Source of the DNA: an uncultured Clostridia bacterium
GTDB taxonomy: Bacteria > Bacillota > Clostridia > Christensenellales > UBA1242
Assembly: GCA_944348085.1 (NCBI GenBank)
Contig: CALVMU010000005.1
Location: forward strand, 1-60,203
Reading direction: 5' to 3'
Length of the DNA: 60,203 bases
Below the pieces are notes generated by a model. That model was not told where the DNA came from and made no database searches. It saw only the letters and a list, made by a program, of their open reading frames with translations. Both the position numbers and the translations under genes were made by a program. Positions 13,841 through 49,470 of the stretch are shown here, piece after piece. The stretch's first letter is position 1; each line of letters opens with the position of its first letter.

Positions 13841-14431
13841 TTATTTCAAATCTTTTTGTTTAAGTAAAAAACTATAATCATTCAATTGTTTTTTCAAAAT
13901 TTTGTAGTCTGGACAAAATTTTCTGACCAAATTCCAAAATTTTGGTGAGTGATTCATCTCTTTGCTGTGACAAAGTTCATGAATTATAATATATCTTGTC
14001 AGATTTTCTGGTAAAATGACGCATTTGTAGTTGAGCGAAAGCTCTTTTTTGTTTGAGAAAGTCCCCCACACTCTTTTAGAAGTGATAATTCTATAGCTTT
14101 TAAATTCTATATTTATTGCTTTTGAGATGATTTGTGCAAGTTGAAGCAATACCTTCTCTGCCCTATTTTTATAAGAAAAGTTTGGCTCTTTGTCAAAAGC
14201 TTGCCCAAGAATATAGTTATAGCGTTCAAAATCAAACTGTTTGCTGAAAAGGTTTTTCCTTTCATTTTCGTTTATTTGTTTTTTAATCCAAGAAGTTTTG
14301 TCTTTGATAAAACGCTCAATGTCCTCTGTTTTCATTTTAAGCGGTGCGCGGACTTCAATTTTGCCTGCCTCGTTCACTCTCAACGAAATGCTTTTTCTTT
14401 TGCTTCTGATTATTGTCACGCTCAGTTTCAT
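13841..14431 (-). CDS. YgjP-like/M48-type zinc metalloprotein (DUF45)
   Basis: RSKRKSISLRV N-terminus; WG; YIIIHELCH; NHSPKFW. Confidence 0.85.
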   Translation of the reverse strand: MKLSVTIIRSKRKSISLRVNEAGKIEVRAPLKMKTEDIERFIKDKTSWIKKQINENERKNLFSKQFDFERYNYILGQAFDKEPNFSYKNRAEKVLLQLAQIISKAINIEFKSYRIITSKRVWGTFSNKKELSLNYKCVILPENLTRYIIIHELCHSKEMNHSPKFWNLVRKFCPDYKILKKQLNDYSFLLKQKDLK

Positions 14432-14571
14432 ACATCAATCCTTTGACTTTATTATAGCAGATTTTTTATCTTTTTCAAAGAAATTTTTGCATACTAGTAT
14501 GCCATATGCGCATAATACCACAAAATATTGTATATAGTCTAAATATTTTTTTGCATAATAGCACAAATTTA

Positions 14572-14600
14572 TTGACTTAAAATGAAAAAATTTATATAAT
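14572..14600 (+). promoter_or_regulatory. sigmaA promoter of the PadR-like gene, abutting GCATAATA motif copies
   Basis: TTGACT-17-TATAAT; AGAGGTG RBS. Confidence 0.7.
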
Positions 14601-14620
14601 CATTCTATAAGAGGTGCTTT

Positions 14621-16498
14621 ATGGAAATTTTTGCAAAAGGTCAACTTTCTTACATGATTTTAAATTGCCTTTTAGAGCGTGATTTTTATGGCTTAGATTT
14701 TATAAGCGAAATCAACAAAAAAAGCAATGGTCGCATTATGCTTAAGAAGCCAAGTGTTTATTCCAACCTTACCAGAATGGAAAAACAAAAATATGTTTCT
14801 TCTTATACTCAGTCAAGTGAGTTGGGGCCAAATAGGCGCTACTATTCGATTACAGAAAAAGGCAAAGCTTATTATCAAGAGCTGAAAGCGCATTTTGAAG
14901 CAAACAACATTGATGTGTTCAGAGATTTTCAAGCTGATGGTTACAGCGTTGAAACTCCTTCTTTCAATTTTGATGAGCAAAATTTTGTTTCTGCTCAACA
15001 GTCTTCTTCAAATGAAGAAGCTAAAAACAATGCTTACATAGAAAACGAGGAAAGCGAAAACGAAGATGAAAGCGATTTCTTTGATTTTTCATCGCTTGAC
15101 TCCCCTCAACCTCAAGTTCAAGAAGTTTCTGAAAATCAATCAGTGCAATCTTCAGCAACGGTTTCTGAAAACTATAACGAATCTTATAATGAAACTTATC
15201 AAAACAAAATCACAAATGAAACTATTTATCAAACAAATGAGAGTTTTGTTGAAAAACAAGTTGAAAAACAAGAAGAAAAGTCTATAGCGTCAGAAGAAAT
15301 TTCGAGTGAACCAACAGAAATGTCAAAACCTGAGCCTCAAACCGTTGAAACAATTGAAGCTGAAGAACCAGTTAAAGTCAAAGATGACGGTGCTTTCTTG
15401 AGTCGAGAGCAAGTGAACAGCTATAATCAACATCTTTACGATATTTCAAAAGACATAAGAAAATATAAAAAGCAACGCAGTTTTGCTGAAGACCAGATTG
15501 CAATGACAGTTACAACTCCCCTGCAAGAATCTGAAGAGAGAACTCGCTCGAACCTTGAGGCTTTCAAAAATTCGCTTATGGAAAATCGAAACAAGTTTGC
15601 TGAGAACAGCGAGTTTGAAAGATTTAATGAAAGACAAAACCGCATGTATGGCTCAAGTGATGTGGTAAAACCAGAAGTTGATAATGCGCAAACTCAGCAA
15701 AACAATCTTTCATCAGTGCAAAATTCTTATGTGGCGAAAGGAAGCACTTTCTTTCAAGATAAGCCAGTTGAAAAAGTTGTTACCGATGATGGGCGTTTTA
15801 TCACAAGCAGAATAACTGAAGAAGTTCGTCCTAAAAAAATTCAGCCACCAAGGCTTAAAGTTGTGCAACAAGAGCGTGAGGAAACTCTTCCACCGCCAAA
15901 ACGCGATGTGAAGATTGACCCTTCTCATAAAGAAATTATTTCTCAGCTTTATTCAAAAACAAAAACTGGTCAAGATGAAGAGCTTCGCTCAGACATGCTT
16001 TATGATTACCAAGATCTTTCTGATTTTTATAAAGAGCAAAACATTGAGTTTAATGAATACAAGAAAAATAGCCTTGATGTAAAACACAATACAAACAAGC
16101 TTGCATTCTATCAAAGTTTGATTGTCTTTTTCCTGTTGGCAATTGCTTCAGCTGCAACTTTCCTTATTTTGCATTTCACAAGCAGTTTAAATCCAACGCT
16201 TAATTTTCTTTACATATTGTTGCCTGCCCTTCAACTCATAATGGTTGCCGTAAGATTTTATAACTATAAATATCATACTAGTTGGATTCCAAAACAAATG
16301 GTTTCATTCTGGGCAATACTTGGCTACACTCTTTTAATTATTGGTGCTGTGATTGGTTTGAACTTTATTTTTGGGCTTAACACAACAAACTTTGCTTTAT
16401 ATTCGACAACTTTAATTTTGCCAATTATTTTGATCATCATTGCACTTCCGATTTCCTACTTAATTCAAAAATCGCTTATTGTAAGACATTGGAAATAA
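14621..16498 (+). CDS. PadR-family wHTH protein with a long acidic disordered linker and 4 C-terminal TM helices
   Basis: ILNCL..RDFYG, PSVYSNLTRME, GPNRRYYSITEKG; ~400 aa E/Q/S/N-rich; four hydrophobic segments in the last 130 aa. Confidence 0.8.
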   Translation: MEIFAKGQLSYMILNCLLERDFYGLDFISEINKKSNGRIMLKKPSVYSNLTRMEKQKYVSSYTQSSELGPNRRYYSITEKGKAYYQELKAHFEANNIDVFRDFQADGYSVETPSFNFDEQNFVSAQQSSSNEEAKNNAYIENEESENEDESDFFDFSSLDSPQPQVQEVSENQSVQSSATVSENYNESYNETYQNKITNETIYQTNESFVEKQVEKQEEKSIASEEISSEPTEMSKPEPQTVETIEAEEPVKVKDDGAFLSREQVNSYNQHLYDISKDIRKYKKQRSFAEDQIAMTVTTPLQESEERTRSNLEAFKNSLMENRNKFAENSEFERFNERQNRMYGSSDVVKPEVDNAQTQQNNLSSVQNSYVAKGSTFFQDKPVEKVVTDDGRFITSRITEEVRPKKIQPPRLKVVQQEREETLPPPKRDVKIDPSHKEIISQLYSKTKTGQDEELRSDMLYDYQDLSDFYKEQNIEFNEYKKNSLDVKHNTNKLAFYQSLIVFFLLAIASAATFLILHFTSSLNPTLNFLYILLPALQLIMVAVRFYNYKYHTSWIPKQMVSFWAILGYTLLIIGAVIGLNFIFGLNTTNFALYSTTLILPIILIIIALPISYLIQKSLIVRHWK

Positions 16499-40708: not shown

Positions 40709-41197
40709 TTAAAATTTTATTATTGGCACGATGTGCGCAATTTTTTCTCTTTGAATTGTGATTTGACTTGCTAGAGGTTTTTTAGTCTTTTTAGAAAGCG
40801 TTGGTTCAATTGTCACGCTTGTCTCGTCAAAGCTTGCAAGTTTGCCTTCAAAAAGTTTTATTCCGTCTTGTTTTGCAAACAGCGTGATGGCAACCTCTTG
40901 ACCTAAATTTCGCTTGAAATCTCGCTCAGTTTTGATTGGTCTGTCAAGACCTGGCGAGCTCACATTTAAGGTGTAAGGCTGGTCGTCTGTTGGATTGATT
41001 TCGTCAAGAAGCGGATCAATCACCTTGCTCACCTTTTCGCAATCGTCTGTTGAAATGCCGTTGTCAGAGTCGATATAGAAAGTAAGGTTCATGCCGTCAG
41101 ACTTTTTTGCATATTCAACTTCGATAACATCGTAGCCCATCTCTTCAATAACAGGCACAACTTTTTCTTCGCAAATTGTTTTTGTTTTGCTTGCCAA
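40709..41197 (-). CDS. rimP: Ribosome maturation factor RimP (TTG start)
   Basis: DDCEKVS, LNVSSPGLDRP. Confidence 0.96.
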   Translation of the reverse strand: MASKTKTICEEKVVPVIEEMGYDVIEVEYAKKSDGMNLTFYIDSDNGISTDDCEKVSKVIDPLLDEINPTDDQPYTLNVSSPGLDRPIKTERDFKRNLGQEVAITLFAKQDGIKLFEGKLASFDETSVTIEPTLSKKTKKPLASQITIQREKIAHIVPIIKF

Positions 41198-41219
41198 AAT
41201 AACCTCCTTTATTTACGAA

Positions 41220-41256
41220 GCAGGGAGTGAACAAATCTTGCTCACTCCCCACGCGC
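41220..41256 (-). promoter_or_regulatory. Leader hairpin upstream of the rimP-nusA operon
   Basis: GGGAGTGAGCAA...TTGTTCACTCCC. Confidence 0.55.
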
Positions 41257-41405
41257 TTCTATTCTAGTCAACTTTATTGTAACACAACAAACAAATAAAA
41301 TCAACCTTTTATATAAAATTTATTTATTTTTTAGAAAAATTATAATATTTTTTGCCTTTGATTTAAGCAATTTTTGTCAATTGTCCATGTTTTTGCGAAA
41401 AAAAC

Positions 41406-42959
41406 TTATTTGCTTTTGACTTTTGAAAGTTCAAGAAGAACCTGCGCTGTTGCAAGCGCGTCGTTATATGCCCTGTGCGCTCCCTCAAGCGTCAAACCAA
41501 GAGCGGCAACGATTGTGCCCAGTTTATAGTTTGCAAGCCTGAGCGAAGATGTTCTTGCAAGCACCAAGGTGTCAATAATTTGGTTTTTAAAGTAAAGTCC
41601 ATTTTTTTCTGCAGCTTTCTTGATAAATTTAAAGTCAAAGCCGACAACATTGTGACCGCAAAGCACACAGTTATCGCAAAATGCCTTAAAGTCATAGATA
41701 ACATCTCTGATTGAAGGCGCATCTTTAACCATATCATCAGTGATATGAGTCAAAGCCTTTACCTCTTCAGGAATAGGTTTTGTAGGCTTTACAAAAGTGG
41801 CAAATTTTTCTTTTATCACACCGTCTACAATTTTAACCGCTCCAATTTCAGTGATTTCGTCTTCTTCAAAGTTAAGACCTGTGGTTTCAATATCAAACAC
41901 AACAACATTTTTGCCTTTTACATTGTCGTTGTAATTTATCTGTTTGTCAAACAAGAAGGCTTGCGTTGTCAATTCTATCTTTTCTGGAAAAACCACCTGC
42001 TTATGATTTGAATAATCGTTTTCGGTGATAGAAGAAATTTGTGCAGATTCGATTTTTTCTTTTTTCTGAGCCCAAGAAATCTTTTTCACATAATAGGTGT
42101 TGTTTCCGCTCAAGCCCACATTGATATCGCCAAAGCAGAGCAAAAACATGTCATCTTGCAAGCTGTCCATAACCTTTTCATGAGTTTTTGAACAGAAATA
42201 GAGACAGTCGATTTTGTCACCGTCATCAAGAGTAAAGGTGTAAAACGCCTTTTCCTCACCTGCTTTTTTGCCCTTTTTTATTTTGAAAGTTTTTTTGACG
42301 ATGTTTGAAATCTTGCCCGCCAGAATAACCATTGACTTTGGTTTTTTATTGTTTTTGATGTATTCTGGTTTTGGATTGATTTCACTGCCAACAATTTTCT
42401 TTAAAACTTCAACCTCATATCGCTCAACTTTGTTTGAAGAGATTGGAATGATGTCTGGCGCGTCAATTTCGTCTGGCACAGTGTCTTCATTTTCTTCAAT
42501 TTCAATTGAAAATGATGCGATAAATTTTTCATTTAAATATGAAAGAAGTGCATTTTTAAGATCAAGTTCATTTATCATTGCAAAAATGTCTTGGTTGAGT
42601 TTTATTTTTATGGCAACTTGATCGTCTTCTCTTGAAATTTCGATGTTGTCTTCAAATATGTAAGGCGCAAGCGCCTTTTTCTCATTTTTGAAAAAGTTTG
42701 CAATTTCGCGCCTAATCAGCACCTCGTCAAGAAAGCTCTTTTTAAACTTAACGCGCACATTTGCATTGAGTGACAAAACATTTTTCAGCAGTCCTTCAAG
42801 CTCAGTGCGGTTTTCAGCTGTCATATCTTCATGAGAAAGTGGATACAAAAAAGTAAAGGTGCAAATAGAAGATGCTTTATCGTAAATCACCTCATAGATT
42901 TTTAAAAATTGATATTTATTGTCACAGGCTTTATTCAGCCTTTGCAGAATTTCGTCCAT
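41406..42959 (-). CDS. PolC-derived protein: N-terminal domain + OB fold + DEDDh 3'-5' exonuclease, without PHP or polymerase domains
   Basis: At the rseP-polC-rimP locus; ExoI VVFDIETTG, ExoII HNVVGFD, ExoIII HRAYNDA; only 517 aa. Confidence 0.85.
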   Translation of the reverse strand: MDEILQRLNKACDNKYQFLKIYEVIYDKASSICTFTFLYPLSHEDMTAENRTELEGLLKNVLSLNANVRVKFKKSFLDEVLIRREIANFFKNEKKALAPYIFEDNIEISREDDQVAIKIKLNQDIFAMINELDLKNALLSYLNEKFIASFSIEIEENEDTVPDEIDAPDIIPISSNKVERYEVEVLKKIVGSEINPKPEYIKNNKKPKSMVILAGKISNIVKKTFKIKKGKKAGEEKAFYTFTLDDGDKIDCLYFCSKTHEKVMDSLQDDMFLLCFGDINVGLSGNNTYYVKKISWAQKKEKIESAQISSITENDYSNHKQVVFPEKIELTTQAFLFDKQINYNDNVKGKNVVVFDIETTGLNFEEDEITEIGAVKIVDGVIKEKFATFVKPTKPIPEEVKALTHITDDMVKDAPSIRDVIYDFKAFCDNCVLCGHNVVGFDFKFIKKAAEKNGLYFKNQIIDTLVLARTSSLRLANYKLGTIVAALGLTLEGAHRAYNDALATAQVLLELSKVKSK

Positions 42960-42968
42960 AGCAACATT

Positions 42969-44150
42969 TTACAACACAAAATGCAAAATGTCAATTATAA
43001 TCACCGCCCCAAATAATATAAAAAGTCCGATGGTGTGAATCATATTTTCGATTTCGCGCTTTATTGGCTTTTTGCGGATTGCTTCAATGGTTGTAAAAAG
43101 CACATGCGAGCCATCAAGCGACGGAATGGGCAAGATGTTGAAGACTGCAAGGTTTGCCGAAATCAAAGGTATTAAAATAAGCACATTTGCAAGGTTTGCC
43201 TGAGTGAAAGAGGCAATTGTTGCAATTGTTGTGATTGGTCCTCCAATTTCTGCGATTGAAAGCTGGAAGGTTATCAAAAGCCATAGCGATTTTAAAACAA
43301 TCCAAGCAAGCCCGAAAGCGAATGGAACGCATCGCTCTAAAGCTTCCCAGAAAGTGTGAACATACGCTGTTGCGCTGATGCCAGTTGAATATGCGGTTTC
43401 TTCTTCTCCCAAAACTGGTTGACCTGTTTCTGAGTCTATGCTTAAAACTTTGGCGCGCTTTAACACCGAAAAGCCTGTATAAGCTGTTTGATACTCTCCA
43501 TTTCTGCGAACTGTAAGTTCGATCAGCTGATAATCTGTGACTGAGCTGTTGTTCTCCTTTGCCCAAGCAATAGCTTTATCAAGTTCATTTTCAATGGCTG
43601 TGCTATAGTTGACGCCATAGGCAAAATCGATTTTTTCGCCATTAATTGCGATGATGACATCACCCTCTTGCAGTCTAAGTTCTTCATCAAGTGACAAAAC
43701 TTGACTGTTTTCTTCAACCGAAGTTATCACATAGCCGTTTTGAATCTGCTCTGATGCAGTTGGATAGCCAAAAGTGACCACTTGTGGAATGTCGTAGCCA
43801 ATTGTGCAAAGAAGAATAAGTGAAAAAACAACGGCGGTTGCAAAGTTGAAAACAACGCCAGCAACAAAAACAAGAATCCTTTTCCAAGGTGCTTGTGCGT
43901 TGAACGAGTCTTTGCCGTCAGAAGAGTCTTCTTCGCCTTCAAAAGCGCAATACCCGCCAAGCGGAAAAATCCTAAGAGAAATCAGCTCCCCTCTTTTGTT
44001 CTTACGAGAAAAGAGGGCTTTACCAAACCCTACCGAAAATTCTGTAATTTTAAAATTTAACATTCTTCCAACGCAATAGTGGCCAAATTCATGGATAAGC
44101 ACCATAAAAAGCAAAATCACAATTGCAAGAAGAATATAAAGAAAGGTCAC
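42969..44150 (-). CDS. rseP: RIP site-2 metalloprotease RseP/RasP
   Basis: IHEFGH, PLGGYC, PDZ, NILPIPSLDG. Confidence 0.94.
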   Translation of the reverse strand: MTFLYILLAIVILLFMVLIHEFGHYCVGRMLNFKITEFSVGFGKALFSRKNKRGELISLRIFPLGGYCAFEGEEDSSDGKDSFNAQAPWKRILVFVAGVVFNFATAVVFSLILLCTIGYDIPQVVTFGYPTASEQIQNGYVITSVEENSQVLSLDEELRLQEGDVIIAINGEKIDFAYGVNYSTAIENELDKAIAWAKENNSSVTDYQLIELTVRRNGEYQTAYTGFSVLKRAKVLSIDSETGQPVLGEEETAYSTGISATAYVHTFWEALERCVPFAFGLAWIVLKSLWLLITFQLSIAEIGGPITTIATIASFTQANLANVLILIPLISANLAVFNILPIPSLDGSHVLFTTIEAIRKKPIKREIENMIHTIGLFILFGAVIIIDILHFVL

Positions 44151-46604: not shown

Positions 46605-49388
46605 TCATTTAAGTTTTGGATCAACAAATTCAACTTTGACAATGTGAATAGTTCTTGGGTCGATTGTTGCAAACTCCCCTTTTGGCTTAATGTAATAATT
46701 TGTGTGATCTGGTTTAATCAACGCCATTGCAGGTTTATTGTCTTCATCAGTCATTCCAAGGTCGACATACATTTCTAAGTTTGGTCCATAATAAAGTTTT
46801 ACAGAATCTTTTTTATTTGCAAGAATATCTTCAATTTCCTGAATATACTTTTCAGTTTTTGCTAAATTAGCCTCATATTGTCTTGCATCAAGAATATTAA
46901 TCTTTGAATTTTTATCTTGCAATCTTGAATAAACAAGAACATCTTTATAATCTTTTTGTTGTGAAAGATCCTTCAAAGTGTTATTTAAAGCTTCTAAAAG
47001 CTTTGTGAAAAAGATGGAAGTTGCAGCGGCAACATTTACACTATCAAAGTTATTGGTTCTCAAATATTCGATGTCTTTTATAATGTCTGGTGCATTTAAA
47101 TTTTCATCATATTCTTGTTCTTTATTTAAATAAGGCATGAGCATATCTTCTGGATCATTGAATGCAATTTTCAAAACTTCATCTGTAAAAAATTCTTTTA
47201 ACGCATTCATCTTTGCAATTATAAACAAAATTAAAAATTGTTGAAGATGATATTCGTGATTTATTTCGGTTATGTTTGATCTCTTTACAAATTCTTCCCA
47301 ACCTTCTTTATTTTTCTCCACAAAAAGCGATTCAATGGATTTATATTGTTTTTGATTTCGTTTATATGCAGATATAATTGTGTCAATTGAGCTGTTTAAT
47401 ATAGACGCTGTCTCATTACGCATTGAAATAGATGCCCATTGTCTTAATTCAAAACCGTTTACTTCAACAATATCTATAGTATGATACATTACGCATGCAT
47501 TGTTTCCTTCAATTCTTCCAAAAGCCTTTTTAACTTCTTGGAGTTTTTTCATATCAAAGCACAACTCATCTGATCCAATGCTTTTTAAAAAATTTCGTTT
47601 TTCTTTCTTTATTTCAGAGATAAAAAAGTTAAAGAAATTTGCAATATTTGTATAAACGGCATCAAAAGTTTTCCCGCTTATCGAACGATATTGTGGCACA
47701 CCATGCGCAAAGTCGTCTGGTGTCACTTTTGAATAGAATGCTTTAGGTCCTTCACGCTTTATTTCCTCTATTCCAGCAATTATGTCATCGATAGTTGGCG
47801 TTTTTTCTTCTTTGCTTTCATCCATATTGTCTTGAGTGGTGTTATCGCCTTCTTTATTGTCAGTTGTGTCATCTGTGTCTGTTTCAGAATTTGACTTATC
47901 GTTTGATGGCTCGTTGTCTTGAGGATTTTTTGAAAGCCTGTTCATTTCTCTTAATTTTTTATAATATTCTCTTTTGGCTTTTTTATCAGTTTGAATGTCT
48001 CCAGCAAAAGAGTTCACTGAAGCGACAAATTTTTCATAAAGCTCTGAATTTATTGTTTTGTAACTATCAATTGTTTTAACAAGTTCAGAGGAAGAGATTA
48101 GTGGGAAATTTTTATCTACAACATTCTCTTCTTTTTTATGATAATCTCTGTTTTTTCCAGAAGCGTTGTTTGTTTCATCATCATTTTCATTCAGCGCTTT
48201 TTGTAGGCTTAAAACATTTAAAAATTTTGAAGGATTTGCAACAAAAGTGGTTTTTAAATGGTTGTTCTTATTTTTGTTATCAGCGTTTGCAATATATGCA
48301 AGAACAAAACCAAGCTTTGTCAAGTCTGTTGACAAAATTGCTTTATCAAGCAAGCAATTCATTGCGTTTTGCGCGCCCACAAATTTTTCAAGAAGCTCTG
48401 CTTTTAAAAGCAATGTTTCACTTTTTGAATTTGTGATTGCTTCCAAATTATCTAAATTATAAAAACTTTTTTCAAGTTTGCGATTGTTTGGCGATTTTAA
48501 AAATTTGCCTAAAACCAAATTTTTGTCCATTTTTTTGCTTAAGTTGAAATAAATTTTTTGGCAAATATCCAAATTTTCGTTGAATTTTTCAGAGCTGATC
48601 ATTAATATTGAAGGATTTTTTGAAATTTTATCAAGAAGCTCTGCCTTTGCGATTTTGTTTTCATCACAAACAATTTCAAGCAAGGCAATTGTGTTTGCCA
48701 TTTTGTCGACAGAAACAGCCAAAAGAGACGGCGTCTCTTTTAACAATGACTTTACATCAAAATGATAACAATCTTGCTCTTTGTCATAAGAAAGTTTTTT
48801 GAGAAGGTCAATGATTTCTTTCAAATTGTCAGCGCTAACGCGACATGCAATTGAAGCGCATTGTTGCATGATTTGTTTATACTCTTCTTGAGAAAAAAGA
48901 GCGCTCTCTTCGTTTTTGTTTAAGTTATATTTCTCTTTAGTTAAAGCCTCCAAAGTGTTTTGGAAATTGTCAACAGTTGCCATTCTTATGTTTGTTTTAA
49001 GTGCAATGCGATATGGAGAAAGATTGAGTTGTTTTGCAAGCGCCAAAACCTCTTTTATTTGCGATGAAACATTCTTGGAATCTTCCTCATAAAGTTCAAT
49101 TGTTTCAAGCAAAATTCTTTTAAGCGATTTGACCCTATCCTTATTTGCCGAAAAAATTTCTCCATCAAGATAGTTTTCTTTCAAAAGTTCAATAAGCTGA
49201 TCAGCAAGCTTTATCTTTCCATTTTGGCAAATTCTGTCAATCACATTTGCAACATCTTTTTCTGAAAAACTAAAATATGTCAAAATTGTAGAAAAAGAAG
49301 CGATTTTATCTTCAAATTCCTTGTTAGAATCAATCAAATTCTTTGTTTTTTCATGTAAATTTGCTTTAATTATACCACTCAATGCCAT
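46605..49388 (-). CDS. Large orphan protein with mTERF-like helical repeats (start probably ATG 49388)
   Basis: LLKETPSLLAVSVDKM, KISKNPSILMISSEKF, IMQQCASIACRVSADNL repeats; own TTGACA-17-TAGACT promoter, GAGGT RBS and terminator. Confidence 0.7.
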   Translation of the reverse strand: MALSGIIKANLHEKTKNLIDSNKEFEDKIASFSTILTYFSFSEKDVANVIDRICQNGKIKLADQLIELLKENYLDGEIFSANKDRVKSLKRILLETIELYEEDSKNVSSQIKEVLALAKQLNLSPYRIALKTNIRMATVDNFQNTLEALTKEKYNLNKNEESALFSQEEYKQIMQQCASIACRVSADNLKEIIDLLKKLSYDKEQDCYHFDVKSLLKETPSLLAVSVDKMANTIALLEIVCDENKIAKAELLDKISKNPSILMISSEKFNENLDICQKIYFNLSKKMDKNLVLGKFLKSPNNRKLEKSFYNLDNLEAITNSKSETLLLKAELLEKFVGAQNAMNCLLDKAILSTDLTKLGFVLAYIANADNKNKNNHLKTTFVANPSKFLNVLSLQKALNENDDETNNASGKNRDYHKKEENVVDKNFPLISSSELVKTIDSYKTINSELYEKFVASVNSFAGDIQTDKKAKREYYKKLREMNRLSKNPQDNEPSNDKSNSETDTDDTTDNKEGDNTTQDNMDESKEEKTPTIDDIIAGIEEIKREGPKAFYSKVTPDDFAHGVPQYRSISGKTFDAVYTNIANFFNFFISEIKKEKRNFLKSIGSDELCFDMKKLQEVKKAFGRIEGNNACVMYHTIDIVEVNGFELRQWASISMRNETASILNSSIDTIISAYKRNQKQYKSIESLFVEKNKEGWEEFVKRSNITEINHEYHLQQFLILFIIAKMNALKEFFTDEVLKIAFNDPEDMLMPYLNKEQEYDENLNAPDIIKDIEYLRTNNFDSVNVAAATSIFFTKLLEALNNTLKDLSQQKDYKDVLVYSRLQDKNSKINILDARQYEANLAKTEKYIQEIEDILANKKDSVKLYYGPNLEMYVDLGMTDEDNKPAMALIKPDHTNYYIKPKGEFATIDPRTIHIVKVEFVDPKLK

Positions 49389-49470
49389 AAAATACCTCAC
49401 CGCTTTAGTCTATCACAAAAAGCATTTATTGTCAATATACTTTGGCTAAAAAAGCCGTGTGAAATTGCTG

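Follow-up and report, generated by a model that had tools for sequence, protein, structure and literature searches.

A polymerase-less PolC remnant with a clamp-type motif in an order of gut Clostridia

The polC slot of the window holds a short gene

We analysed a contig of an uncultured Clostridia bacterium (GTDB lineage Bacteria; Bacillota; Clostridia; Christensenellales; UBA1242; GenBank assembly GCA_944348085.1, contig CALVMU010000005.1). The whole stretch of 60,203 nucleotides, positions 1 to 60,203 of the forward strand, is called the window below. In the slot of polC, between rseP and rimP, it carries a short open reading frame (ORF) encoding a PolC without its polymerase, hereafter the remnant. 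An earlier note on this DNA had read an intact 517-aa ORF at an rseP-polC-rimP locus, which was confirmed by reading of the ORF and by the Pfam matches of its neighbours. The features of the locus are the following:

42969-44150, minus strand: upstream gene for an RseP-type M50 peptidase, marker of the polC slot (PF02163, E 9e-56; synteny)
41406-42959, minus strand: polymerase-less PolC remnant, whole ORF of 517 aa plus stop, with an ATG start and no internal stop
42465-42959, minus strand: N-terminal domain (NTD), residues 1-165, two KH-type-II-like lobes (about 1-76 and 76-160), from an NTD-only model and hhalign comparison with PolC
42060-42404, minus strand: OB fold, residues ~186-300, with a basic loop KKGKKAG (hhalign to PolC OB, VIA-align)
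41913-42059, minus strand: linker, residues 301-349, replacing the N-terminal PHP half (low predicted local distance difference test score, pLDDT; VVxPE stretch)
41949-41963, minus strand: QAFLF, residues 333-337, a motif of the QxxLF sliding-clamp-binding type, conserved in homologues
41409-41912, minus strand: DEDDh (DnaQ/PolC-type) 3'-5' exonuclease (Exo), residues 350-517 (PF00929, 134 bits)
41198-41405, no strand: AT-rich spacer of 208 bp from the remnant stop to rimP, with promoter-like hexamers and the rimP ribosome-binding site
40709-41197, minus strand: rimP, downstream marker of the polC slot (RimP_N and RimP C-terminal domain; synteny)

The remnant thus has the order NTD-OB-linker-Exo. 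Its ORF starts 9 bp downstream of the M50 gene, with cdsA, uppS and frr farther upstream on the same strand, and on its 3' side the order is rimP-nusA-ylxR-L7Ae-like-infB. A polymerase coding remnant was looked for in the spacer (41198-41405) and none was found; these 208 bp, which contain promoter-like hexamers and the ribosome-binding site of rimP, leave no room for a polymerase half. That the gene is not a frameshifted one, as the note had argued, is borne out by this non-coding spacer and by the same-length short form across relatives.

The slot is shared within the order. In 11 families (f1, f8, f11, f13, f16, f17, f20, f22, f23, f37 and f39), a short gene has rimP-nusA on one side and on the other rseP, in most families together with one more gene. 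Full-length polC occupies the same rseP/rimP slot wherever both flanks were captured, that is at 6 of 10 PolC-bearing loci; at the remaining four, rseP or neither flank was within reach. The homologues of the remnant are named 'hypothetical protein' or 'ribonuclease H-like domain-containing protein' at NCBI. Beside frr, a 931-aa ORF (46605-49400, minus strand) was without a Pfam family at E <= 0.01.

The remnant descends from PolC

On the 517-aa protein, Pfam gave RNase_T at residues 353-508 (E 9.4e-39) and weak OB matches at 211-282, and neither a PHP nor a Pol III alpha core family (PF07733, PF17657); a bona fide PolC of the same order does show the PF07733/PF17657 core. The protein ends after Exo, 5-9 residues past the last Exo helix, with C-termini like ...LSKVKSK. 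The OB fold and intact DEDDh exonuclease that the note had claimed were both recovered (Pfam, profile comparison, invariant residues), and the PHP half and everything past Exo are absent, as it had said. The NCBIfam PolC model NF001688 matches only residues 344-512, onto PolC positions 417-585, with 159.9 bits and thus below its cut-off of 873; a further PolC model gave 148.3 against 1043. The models passed are TIGR00573, a dnaq subfamily domain (105.7 bits vs 71.5), and PF00929 (134 bits vs 24).

For profile comparison, we used 29 homologues (24 species of the window's own genus and five other families) and 10 full-length PolCs of the same order. A single colinear alignment placed residues 19-513 on PolC 25-588 (E 9e-63). 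Because Exo dominates the score over the whole length, the profile was cut into pieces. With the 29-sequence profile, the OB alone matched PolC with a probability of 97% (E 1.8e-10) and the NTD alone with 34% (E 4.3e-4), and the linker alone (296-350) gave no profile match to PolC. In hhalign comparisons with 80 sequences, the NTD matched PolC at 91% (E 1.1e-6), residues 21-155 falling colinearly on PolC 28-156, against control probabilities of 0.3% for DnaE and 1.2% for DnaX. The OB aligned colinearly with the PolC OB (215-321) at 98.2% (E 3.8e-14); its match to the DnaE OB was weaker (93%, E 2.7e-7). The VVxPE stretch of the linker was aligned by hhalign to the PolC PHP segment GVVQAFPDAY. 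Among the 29 homologues, K228 and G230 of the OB loop KKGKKAG are nearly invariant, this basic loop being missing from the PolC OB, and NTD conservation is low, only P40 being nearly invariant.

The AlphaFold2 model of the remnant (mean pLDDT 86.4) found Enterococcus faecium PolC (9qpc_A) as its best Foldseek match (E 4.6e-19, 380 columns). VIA-align superposed model residues 186-517 on chain residues 217-595 with Z 22.8 and 269 aligned positions; the root-mean-square deviation of 20.1 arises because OB and Exo are arranged differently relative to each other. For Exo, VIA-align gave Z 22-24 to DinG-Exo, PolC and DnaQ domains, and the closest solved relative by sequence is the Exo of Thermotoga maritima PolC (2p1j, E 1.7e-54).

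The NTD-only model (pLDDT 89, predicted template modelling score 0.75) has two lobes of beta-beta-alpha-beta-alpha type. Its fold matches are RbfA (Z 9.3), the KH domain of Der (7.2), DciA (7.0), DnaA domain I (6.8) and the tau C-terminal domain (5fku_E residues 520-592, Z 6.0); in a wide fold search these are generic KH-II-like matches with middling Z of 6-9. The PolC NTD has been predicted to consist of two KH-II-like lobes related to tau domain V (Timinskas and Venclovas, cited in PMC3919608). Since solved PolC structures leave the NTD unresolved (PMC12592400), a direct structural comparison is impossible. Pfam found nothing on the NTD alone; a bona fide PolC of the same order is also without an N-terminal Pfam family, so that this silence is uninformative. 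The PolC-like N-terminal region proposed by the note, invisible to Pfam, is supported by the profile-profile comparison above.

A search of 1.84 billion representatives with the NTD profile matched 443 clusters at E <= 1e-3; none of the best 150 was PolC-length, these being short forms of ~500-545 aa, pieces of 68-456 aa and one repeat protein of 2559 aa. Residues 1-300, searched as a single sequence among proteins of 906-2585 aa, gave nothing at E <= 0.01, which is weak evidence. In P0188, the 2559-aa protein, 34 separate stretches match the second NTD lobe (profile 97-158), as if it were an extended array of the KH-like module in an unrelated context.

From the slot, the colinear profile alignment and the match of NTD, OB and Exo each to a part of PolC, the remnant descends from PolC.

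The PolC polymerase has been lost across a clade

The genome of the window (G000) comprises 1.065 Mb in 28 contigs and is 98.35% complete. Searches of this genome with PF07733, PF02811 and PF00136 found no full-length polC, no separate PolC catalytic half and no family-B polymerase (PF00136); the idea of a second polymerase or PolC half elsewhere was therefore dropped. The single PF07733 match is a 1204-aa DnaE-type gene with pfkA directly after it. Its product, which has PHP, palm, fingers, HhH and a C-terminal OB, is of the DnaE1 type and the single Pol III alpha of the genome; the absence of any PolC polymerase domain and the class of DnaE, both of which the note had left to be checked, support its proposal. 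Only one other PHP match was found, in a stand-alone 254-aa protein (L002:5584-6348, G000:C20) whose gene precedes dnaE by about 1 kb. The genome also encodes Pol I, MutS and DnaN, and the remnant is its sole match to PF00929 (DEDDh exonuclease).

We then considered 40 genomes of relatives and 301 genomes of the order (at least 90% complete). The ~515-aa form occurs in each of the 24 congeners, with one copy truncated at the edge of its contig. Exactly one DnaE-type PF07733 match is present in 23 of the 24, G021 (90% complete) having none. Five other families among the 40 relatives combine the short form with a single DnaE, and ten families have a PolC of 1416-1474 aa together with DnaE. Across the order, 145 of the 301 genomes are above the PolC model cut-off and one (G137) has PolC fragments at contig ends. 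In the other 155, distributed over 17 of 38 families, the PolC-model matches are only Exo-sized. No family is mixed for the presence or absence of PolC. A full-length short form in a frame of ~500-600 aa was found in ~127 of the 155 genomes among the matches listed (150 rows). The 155 include a closed single-contig genome (G253), and five PolC-less genomes of 1-8 contigs, G253 among them, have one DnaE each. In a quick DnaE tree, one branch with support of 100 in the Shimodaira-Hasegawa-like approximate likelihood ratio test (SH-aLRT) splits 11 PolC-less from 10 PolC-bearing genomes. This tree fits a single PolC loss, DnaE being an interested party and the root unplaced.

These counts bear on the most trivial explanation, that of a frameshifted, misassembled or pseudogenised polC whose polymerase half lies elsewhere or is unbinned. 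The genomes are mostly metagenome bins and that of the window is in 28 contigs, which gives such an artefact or decay some room. Against this, a frame of ~505-550 aa recurs in the ~127 genomes among the matches listed, across many families, each of which is uniform in this respect; one DnaE is present in a single-contig genome and in others of 3-8 contigs; rimP follows after ~200 bp; sequence variants are mostly synonymous (see below); and there is no second PF07733 or PolC-type PHP match. We regard this explanation as almost certainly wrong. The polymerase has been lost across the whole clade, in which DnaE is the sole Pol III-type polymerase found, and the short form is a trait of the clade and not an accident. 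The earlier note had asked whether the truncation and the QxxLF motif extend to relatives, and both do, the first in all 24 congeners and the second in most homologues.

Two side observations concern the polymerases of the order. Off the polC slot, a 315-aa frame of the closed genome (G253:C1:1098678-1098989) matches positions 3-109 only of the Pol III alpha palm model (E 3.8e-12). Family f21 (G044, G126, G145, G162, G209, G254 and G299) has PolC above cut-off, in frames of ~1400-1434 aa, and no short-form or Exo profile match at E <= 1e-20. The f21 PolCs may be the Exo-less PolC variants of Timinskas et al., that is, the reciprocal state in the same order.

A clamp-type motif lies in the linker

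The note had placed QAFLF at about 41950-41963; residues 333-337 indeed span 41949-41963. Among the 29 homologues, Q333 and F337 are conserved in at least 90%. In a wider set of 80 rows from many families (78 distinct homologues, two rows being duplicates), 74 have an intact DEDDh site. Of these, 63 carry a strict Q-x-x-[LIMV]-[FLYW] at one aligned position and 70 a relaxed Q-x-x-[LIMVF]-[FLYW]; the four homologues with a dead Exo all lack the motif. As a background, the strict motif occurs elsewhere in the short-form proteins 38 times per 41,459 residues. The aligned position is located ~15 residues before Exo, in a linker that is otherwise variable and of low pLDDT, with the VVxPE stretch ~10 residues upstream.

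The position of the motif differs from that in PolC. In Bacillus subtilis PolC, an essential QLSLF forms the last five residues (PMC12309361). All 10 full-length PolCs of the order have a QLSLF-type C-terminal end, and none of them has Q-x-x-[LIMV]-[FL] between residues 210 and 450. The C-terminal motif is missing from the remnant, where the motif is internal instead. The linker motif is thus conserved and new relative to the PolCs of the order; to judge from the alignment of the adjoining stretch, its origin may lie within a leftover of the N-terminal PHP half. By its sequence, QAFLF is a putative beta-clamp-binding site. DnaE retains an internal QFSIF at 948, past the HhH region.

The exonuclease is selected in most of the clade

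The five DEDDh residues (D356, E358, D442, H495 and D500) are invariant in the 29 homologues and all kept in 74 of the 78 distinct ones. This, together with retention of the motif in 70 of the 74, indicates that catalysis is selected in most of the clade. Public contigs from chicken-gut metatranscriptomes (two studies) span most of the gene at 95-99% identity, though contigs cannot prove transcription. They differ at 25 positions, 20 of them synonymous and 5 non-synonymous, which lends some support to purifying selection on the gene and to its possible expression.

DnaE and DnaX in PolC-less genomes

An insertion of 9-17 residues before PRNxSxHAAG (L002 reference positions 495-503) is present in 10 of 11 PolC-less DnaEs, that of G040 being the one without, and in 0 of 10 from PolC-bearing genomes. 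PolC-less DnaEs also have a longer acidic loop before the OB (reference ~1015-1035). Both are candidate contact sites for the remnant. Prediction of a complex between DnaE (1-590) and the remnant (180-517) gave a score of 0.00 in two runs, for which controls were not folded, and speaks neither for nor against binding.

In the window genome, dnaX (G000:C14, locus L173, 1489-2592) encodes only 367 aa, that is clamp-loader domains I-III. A conserved 108-aa ORF (L173 2604-2930) follows it, before ybaB-recR, and was aligned to residues 449-534 of 554, the extreme C-terminal domain, in the full-length DnaX of relatives (hhalign E 7.8e-4). In the window's genus, tau thus appears to exist as two products, a core resembling gamma and a separate C-terminal domain. 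The dnaX frames are 367-405 aa long in 23 of 23 congeners with a match and 388 aa in G040; they are 502-592 aa long in other PolC-less families and 524-706 aa in PolC-bearing ones. A tie between dnaX truncation and PolC loss was dropped, the truncation being true for family f1 and G040 only.

A proposed clamp-tethered exonuclease working with DnaE

We consider it reasonably probable that the remnant is a clamp-tethered 3'-5' exonuclease working with DnaE. The lineage has lost the PHP, the polymerase core and the C-terminal clamp motif of PolC, with a DnaE1-type enzyme as the sole Pol III-type polymerase found, and the NTD-OB-linker-Exo remnant would act as a stand-alone accessory protein. The linker QxxLF would fill one pocket of the beta-clamp dimer and the internal QFSIF of DnaE the other. 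Such sharing of the beta dimer is the geometry of the E. coli alpha-beta2-epsilon complex. The tether would bring the DEDDh Exo to primer ends, where it would excise mismatches that DnaE leaves at 3' ends and so carry on a trans-proofreading of the PolC type; the OB fold would hold single-stranded DNA, and the tau-domain-V-like NTD would tether the remnant to the clamp loader, DnaE or the helicase. Clamp binding, action of the exonuclease on DnaE products and the roles given to NTD and OB are what we infer.

The reading of the remnant as an epsilon-like trans proofreader, first put forward in the note, fits its anatomy and a precedent in B. subtilis, where the PolC exonuclease proofreads DnaE errors in trans within a DnaE-PolC-template complex (Paschalis et al. 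2017, PMC5627055). The same domain would here act on the products of the DnaE partner. In B. subtilis, however, Exo belongs to a complete PolC and serves a DnaE3 that lacks PHP activity, whereas here the polymerase is gone and the putative partner, a DnaE1, has its PHP residues. Trans-proofreading is a plausible pre-existing function, able to outlive the loss of the PolC polymerase.

Comparison with other systems situates the remnant further. Like full-length PolC, it occupies the same slot and has NTD, OB and DEDDh Exo in the same order; unlike PolC, it lacks both PHP halves, palm, thumb, fingers, HhH and the C-terminal QLSLF, and has its motif in the OB-Exo linker. E. coli epsilon (DnaQ) is another DEDDh exonuclease separate from its polymerase, which is of the DnaE1 type. 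Its clamp motif lies in a flexible segment adjoining the nuclease, as the putative one of the remnant does, and VIA-align gives the remnant Z ~22 to epsilon structures. In epsilon this motif is QTSMAF (PMC12309361) and follows the nuclease domain, while the motif of the remnant precedes it. The remnant has an independent origin by truncation of PolC and an extra NTD and OB, and its putative partner DnaE has an intact PHP site, which E. coli alpha has not (PMC3919608). The mycobacterial type also combines a DnaE1 having an 'active' PHP with an extra DEDDh proofreader candidate; its DnaQ is of different origin and architecture, with no NTD-OB reported (PMC12926913). The Exo-less clostridial PolCs of Timinskas et al. 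2014 (PMC3919608) are the reciprocal case, Exo being kept and the polymerase lost here.

Several observations weigh against a clamp-tethered proofreader. Four of the 78 homologues are without the catalytic residues (motif I, FDIETTG, included) and without the clamp motif. These are G147 and G080 in family f25, and G063 and G293 in genus g42 of family f39, whose other genera have an intact Exo. A separate DnaQ-like ORF of 188-192 aa was found in 3 of 5 genomes of these dead-Exo lineages and no separate DnaQ-like gene was seen in the other 2, so the idea that they always have a replacement DnaQ was dropped. In some members the nuclease can thus be dispensed with, and selection acts on another function. 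Further, all 26 DnaEs compared retain the ten PHP positions checked (three His near the N-terminus, followed by D, H, E, H, C, D, H): 11 of 11 from PolC-less genomes, 5 of 5 from dead-Exo lineages and 10 of 10 from PolC-bearing genomes. By the criterion of PMC12926913, the PHP proofreader of DnaE counts as 'active'. DnaE may thus correct its own errors, which would make the remnant a second proofreader at most; that it is the only one is unlikely. The remnant also has no C-terminal tail like the alpha-binding tail of E. coli epsilon. Finally, its NTD is linked to PolC by profile comparison and position, HMMER alone having given no PolC-length link. We had also entertained that DnaE lost its PHP proofreader upon truncation of PolC, which was dropped on the same 26 of 26.

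The loci of the dead-Exo lineages are L165 (G147), L166 (G080), L167/L171 (G063) and L170/L172 (G293); L164, L168 and L169 were considered as well. The ORFs (485-547 aa) are still between rimP and rseP, with NTD, OB and pseudo-Exo kept. The two pseudo-Exos of each pair are 47-55% identical, a conservation equal to that of the OB. That motif and catalysis disappeared together, and did so twice, speaks for a functional tie between motif and nuclease. Retention of the protein in these lineages indicates that the NTD-OB-(pseudo)Exo scaffold is selected for a non-nuclease function too; the protein probably has a structural role besides the nuclease. Profile scores are intermediate in genus g125 of family f37 and in g126 and g141 of f39.

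Taken further, these lineages raise the possibility that the remnant is mainly a structural subunit of the replisome, its NTD and OB coupling DnaE, the clamp loader or the helicase to single-stranded template DNA, with Exo losable. Besides a conserved pseudo-Exo in two lineages that have lost site and motif, such a role would accord with the KH-II-like fold of the NTD lobes, shared at Z 6-7 with the replisome interaction modules DnaA domain I, DciA and tau domain V, with the ~370-aa dnaX and separate 108-aa C-terminal ORF of the window's genus, and with the proposal that the PolC NTD binds the clamp loader (Timinskas et al., PMC3919608). It has to contend with the full set of catalytic residues in 74 of 78 homologues, 70 of them with the motif, and with the low conservation of the NTD, P40 apart. 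We see it as a minority possibility.

The intact PHP site of DnaE also suits another alternative, a clamp-associated exonuclease of repair or processing (mismatch-repair excision, or 3'-end trimming at stalled forks) that does not proofread for DnaE. Clamp motifs are common in repair proteins, the genome has MutS and Pol I, and fused DEDDh domains such as DinG-Exo are among the closest structural matches, alongside PolC. We nevertheless think this quite unlikely, the gene being of replicase descent and still in the polC slot, its ancestral Exo being a proofreader that acts in trans on DnaE products in B. subtilis, and its product being the sole DEDDh exonuclease of a 1.06-Mb genome.

A more far-reaching view, which we hold to be a long shot, would make the remnant the organising hub of a minimal DnaE1 replisome, combining epsilon-like and tau-like functions. 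The NTD would assume the polymerase coupling of tau, whose own C-terminal domain is detached from the clamp loader in this genus, the OB would ride the template strand, and motif and Exo would stand behind DnaE. A new subunit of this epsilon/tau type would explain why dead-nuclease lineages keep the protein.

PolC loss and its meaning for the Clostridia

That Clostridia can lose PolC is, in outline, not new. According to Timinskas et al. 2014 (PMC3919608), a single DnaE1 is all that some Clostridia have, 'all the properties' of a sole replicase are present in clostridial DnaE1, and the Exo insertion is absent from part of the clostridial PolCs; these authors proposed an evolution toward DnaE1-only via loss of PolC. 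A 2026 survey of complete genomes distinguished three polymerase combinations (PMC12926913). Neither text was found to mention a retained NTD-OB-Exo protein, although their supplements might list such genomes, and full-text literature searches gave no report of a polymerase-less PolC remnant. The note had called this replisome design unusual for Firmicutes: with DnaE1-only Clostridia already noted (PMC3919608), that claim has to be tempered. What appears undescribed is the polymerase-less remnant with its new clamp motif, together with its occurrence in about half of the sampled order and the derivatives in which Exo is dead.

PolC is regarded as the hallmark and essential main replicase of low-GC Gram-positives and as a phylum-wide drug target (PMC12592400, PMC13003532). 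In a large block of gut Clostridia (155 of the 301 sampled genomes of one order), no PolC polymerase was seen and the front end was kept. These bacteria represent a living intermediate on the proposed path from PolC plus DnaE1 to DnaE1 only.

The window also shows features of strand composition. GC skew and AT skew of the plus strand flip sign at ~14000-16000, both being positive to the left and negative to the right, and the long genes of the polC-slot region (~36.5-49.4 kb) are all on the minus strand. Enrichment in G+A therefore tracks the strand in a PolC-less genome, coding-strand composition and any replication effect being combined in this measure. Strand-tracking G+A enrichment is usually tied to PolC organisms, and the PolC-less clade offers a test case for the claimed link of PolC to strand-biased genome organisation.

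For the family of replicases, the remnant suggests the independent birth of an epsilon-like stand-alone proofreader with its own clamp-type motif. It is a natural dissection of PolC, pointing to a function for the poorly understood NTD-OB module that is selected despite a dead nuclease. For the organisms, PolC-less commensals should be intrinsically insensitive to inhibitors of the PolC polymerase, and this expected insensitivity bears on the 'narrower than expected' spectrum reported for ibezapolstat in some Bacillota.

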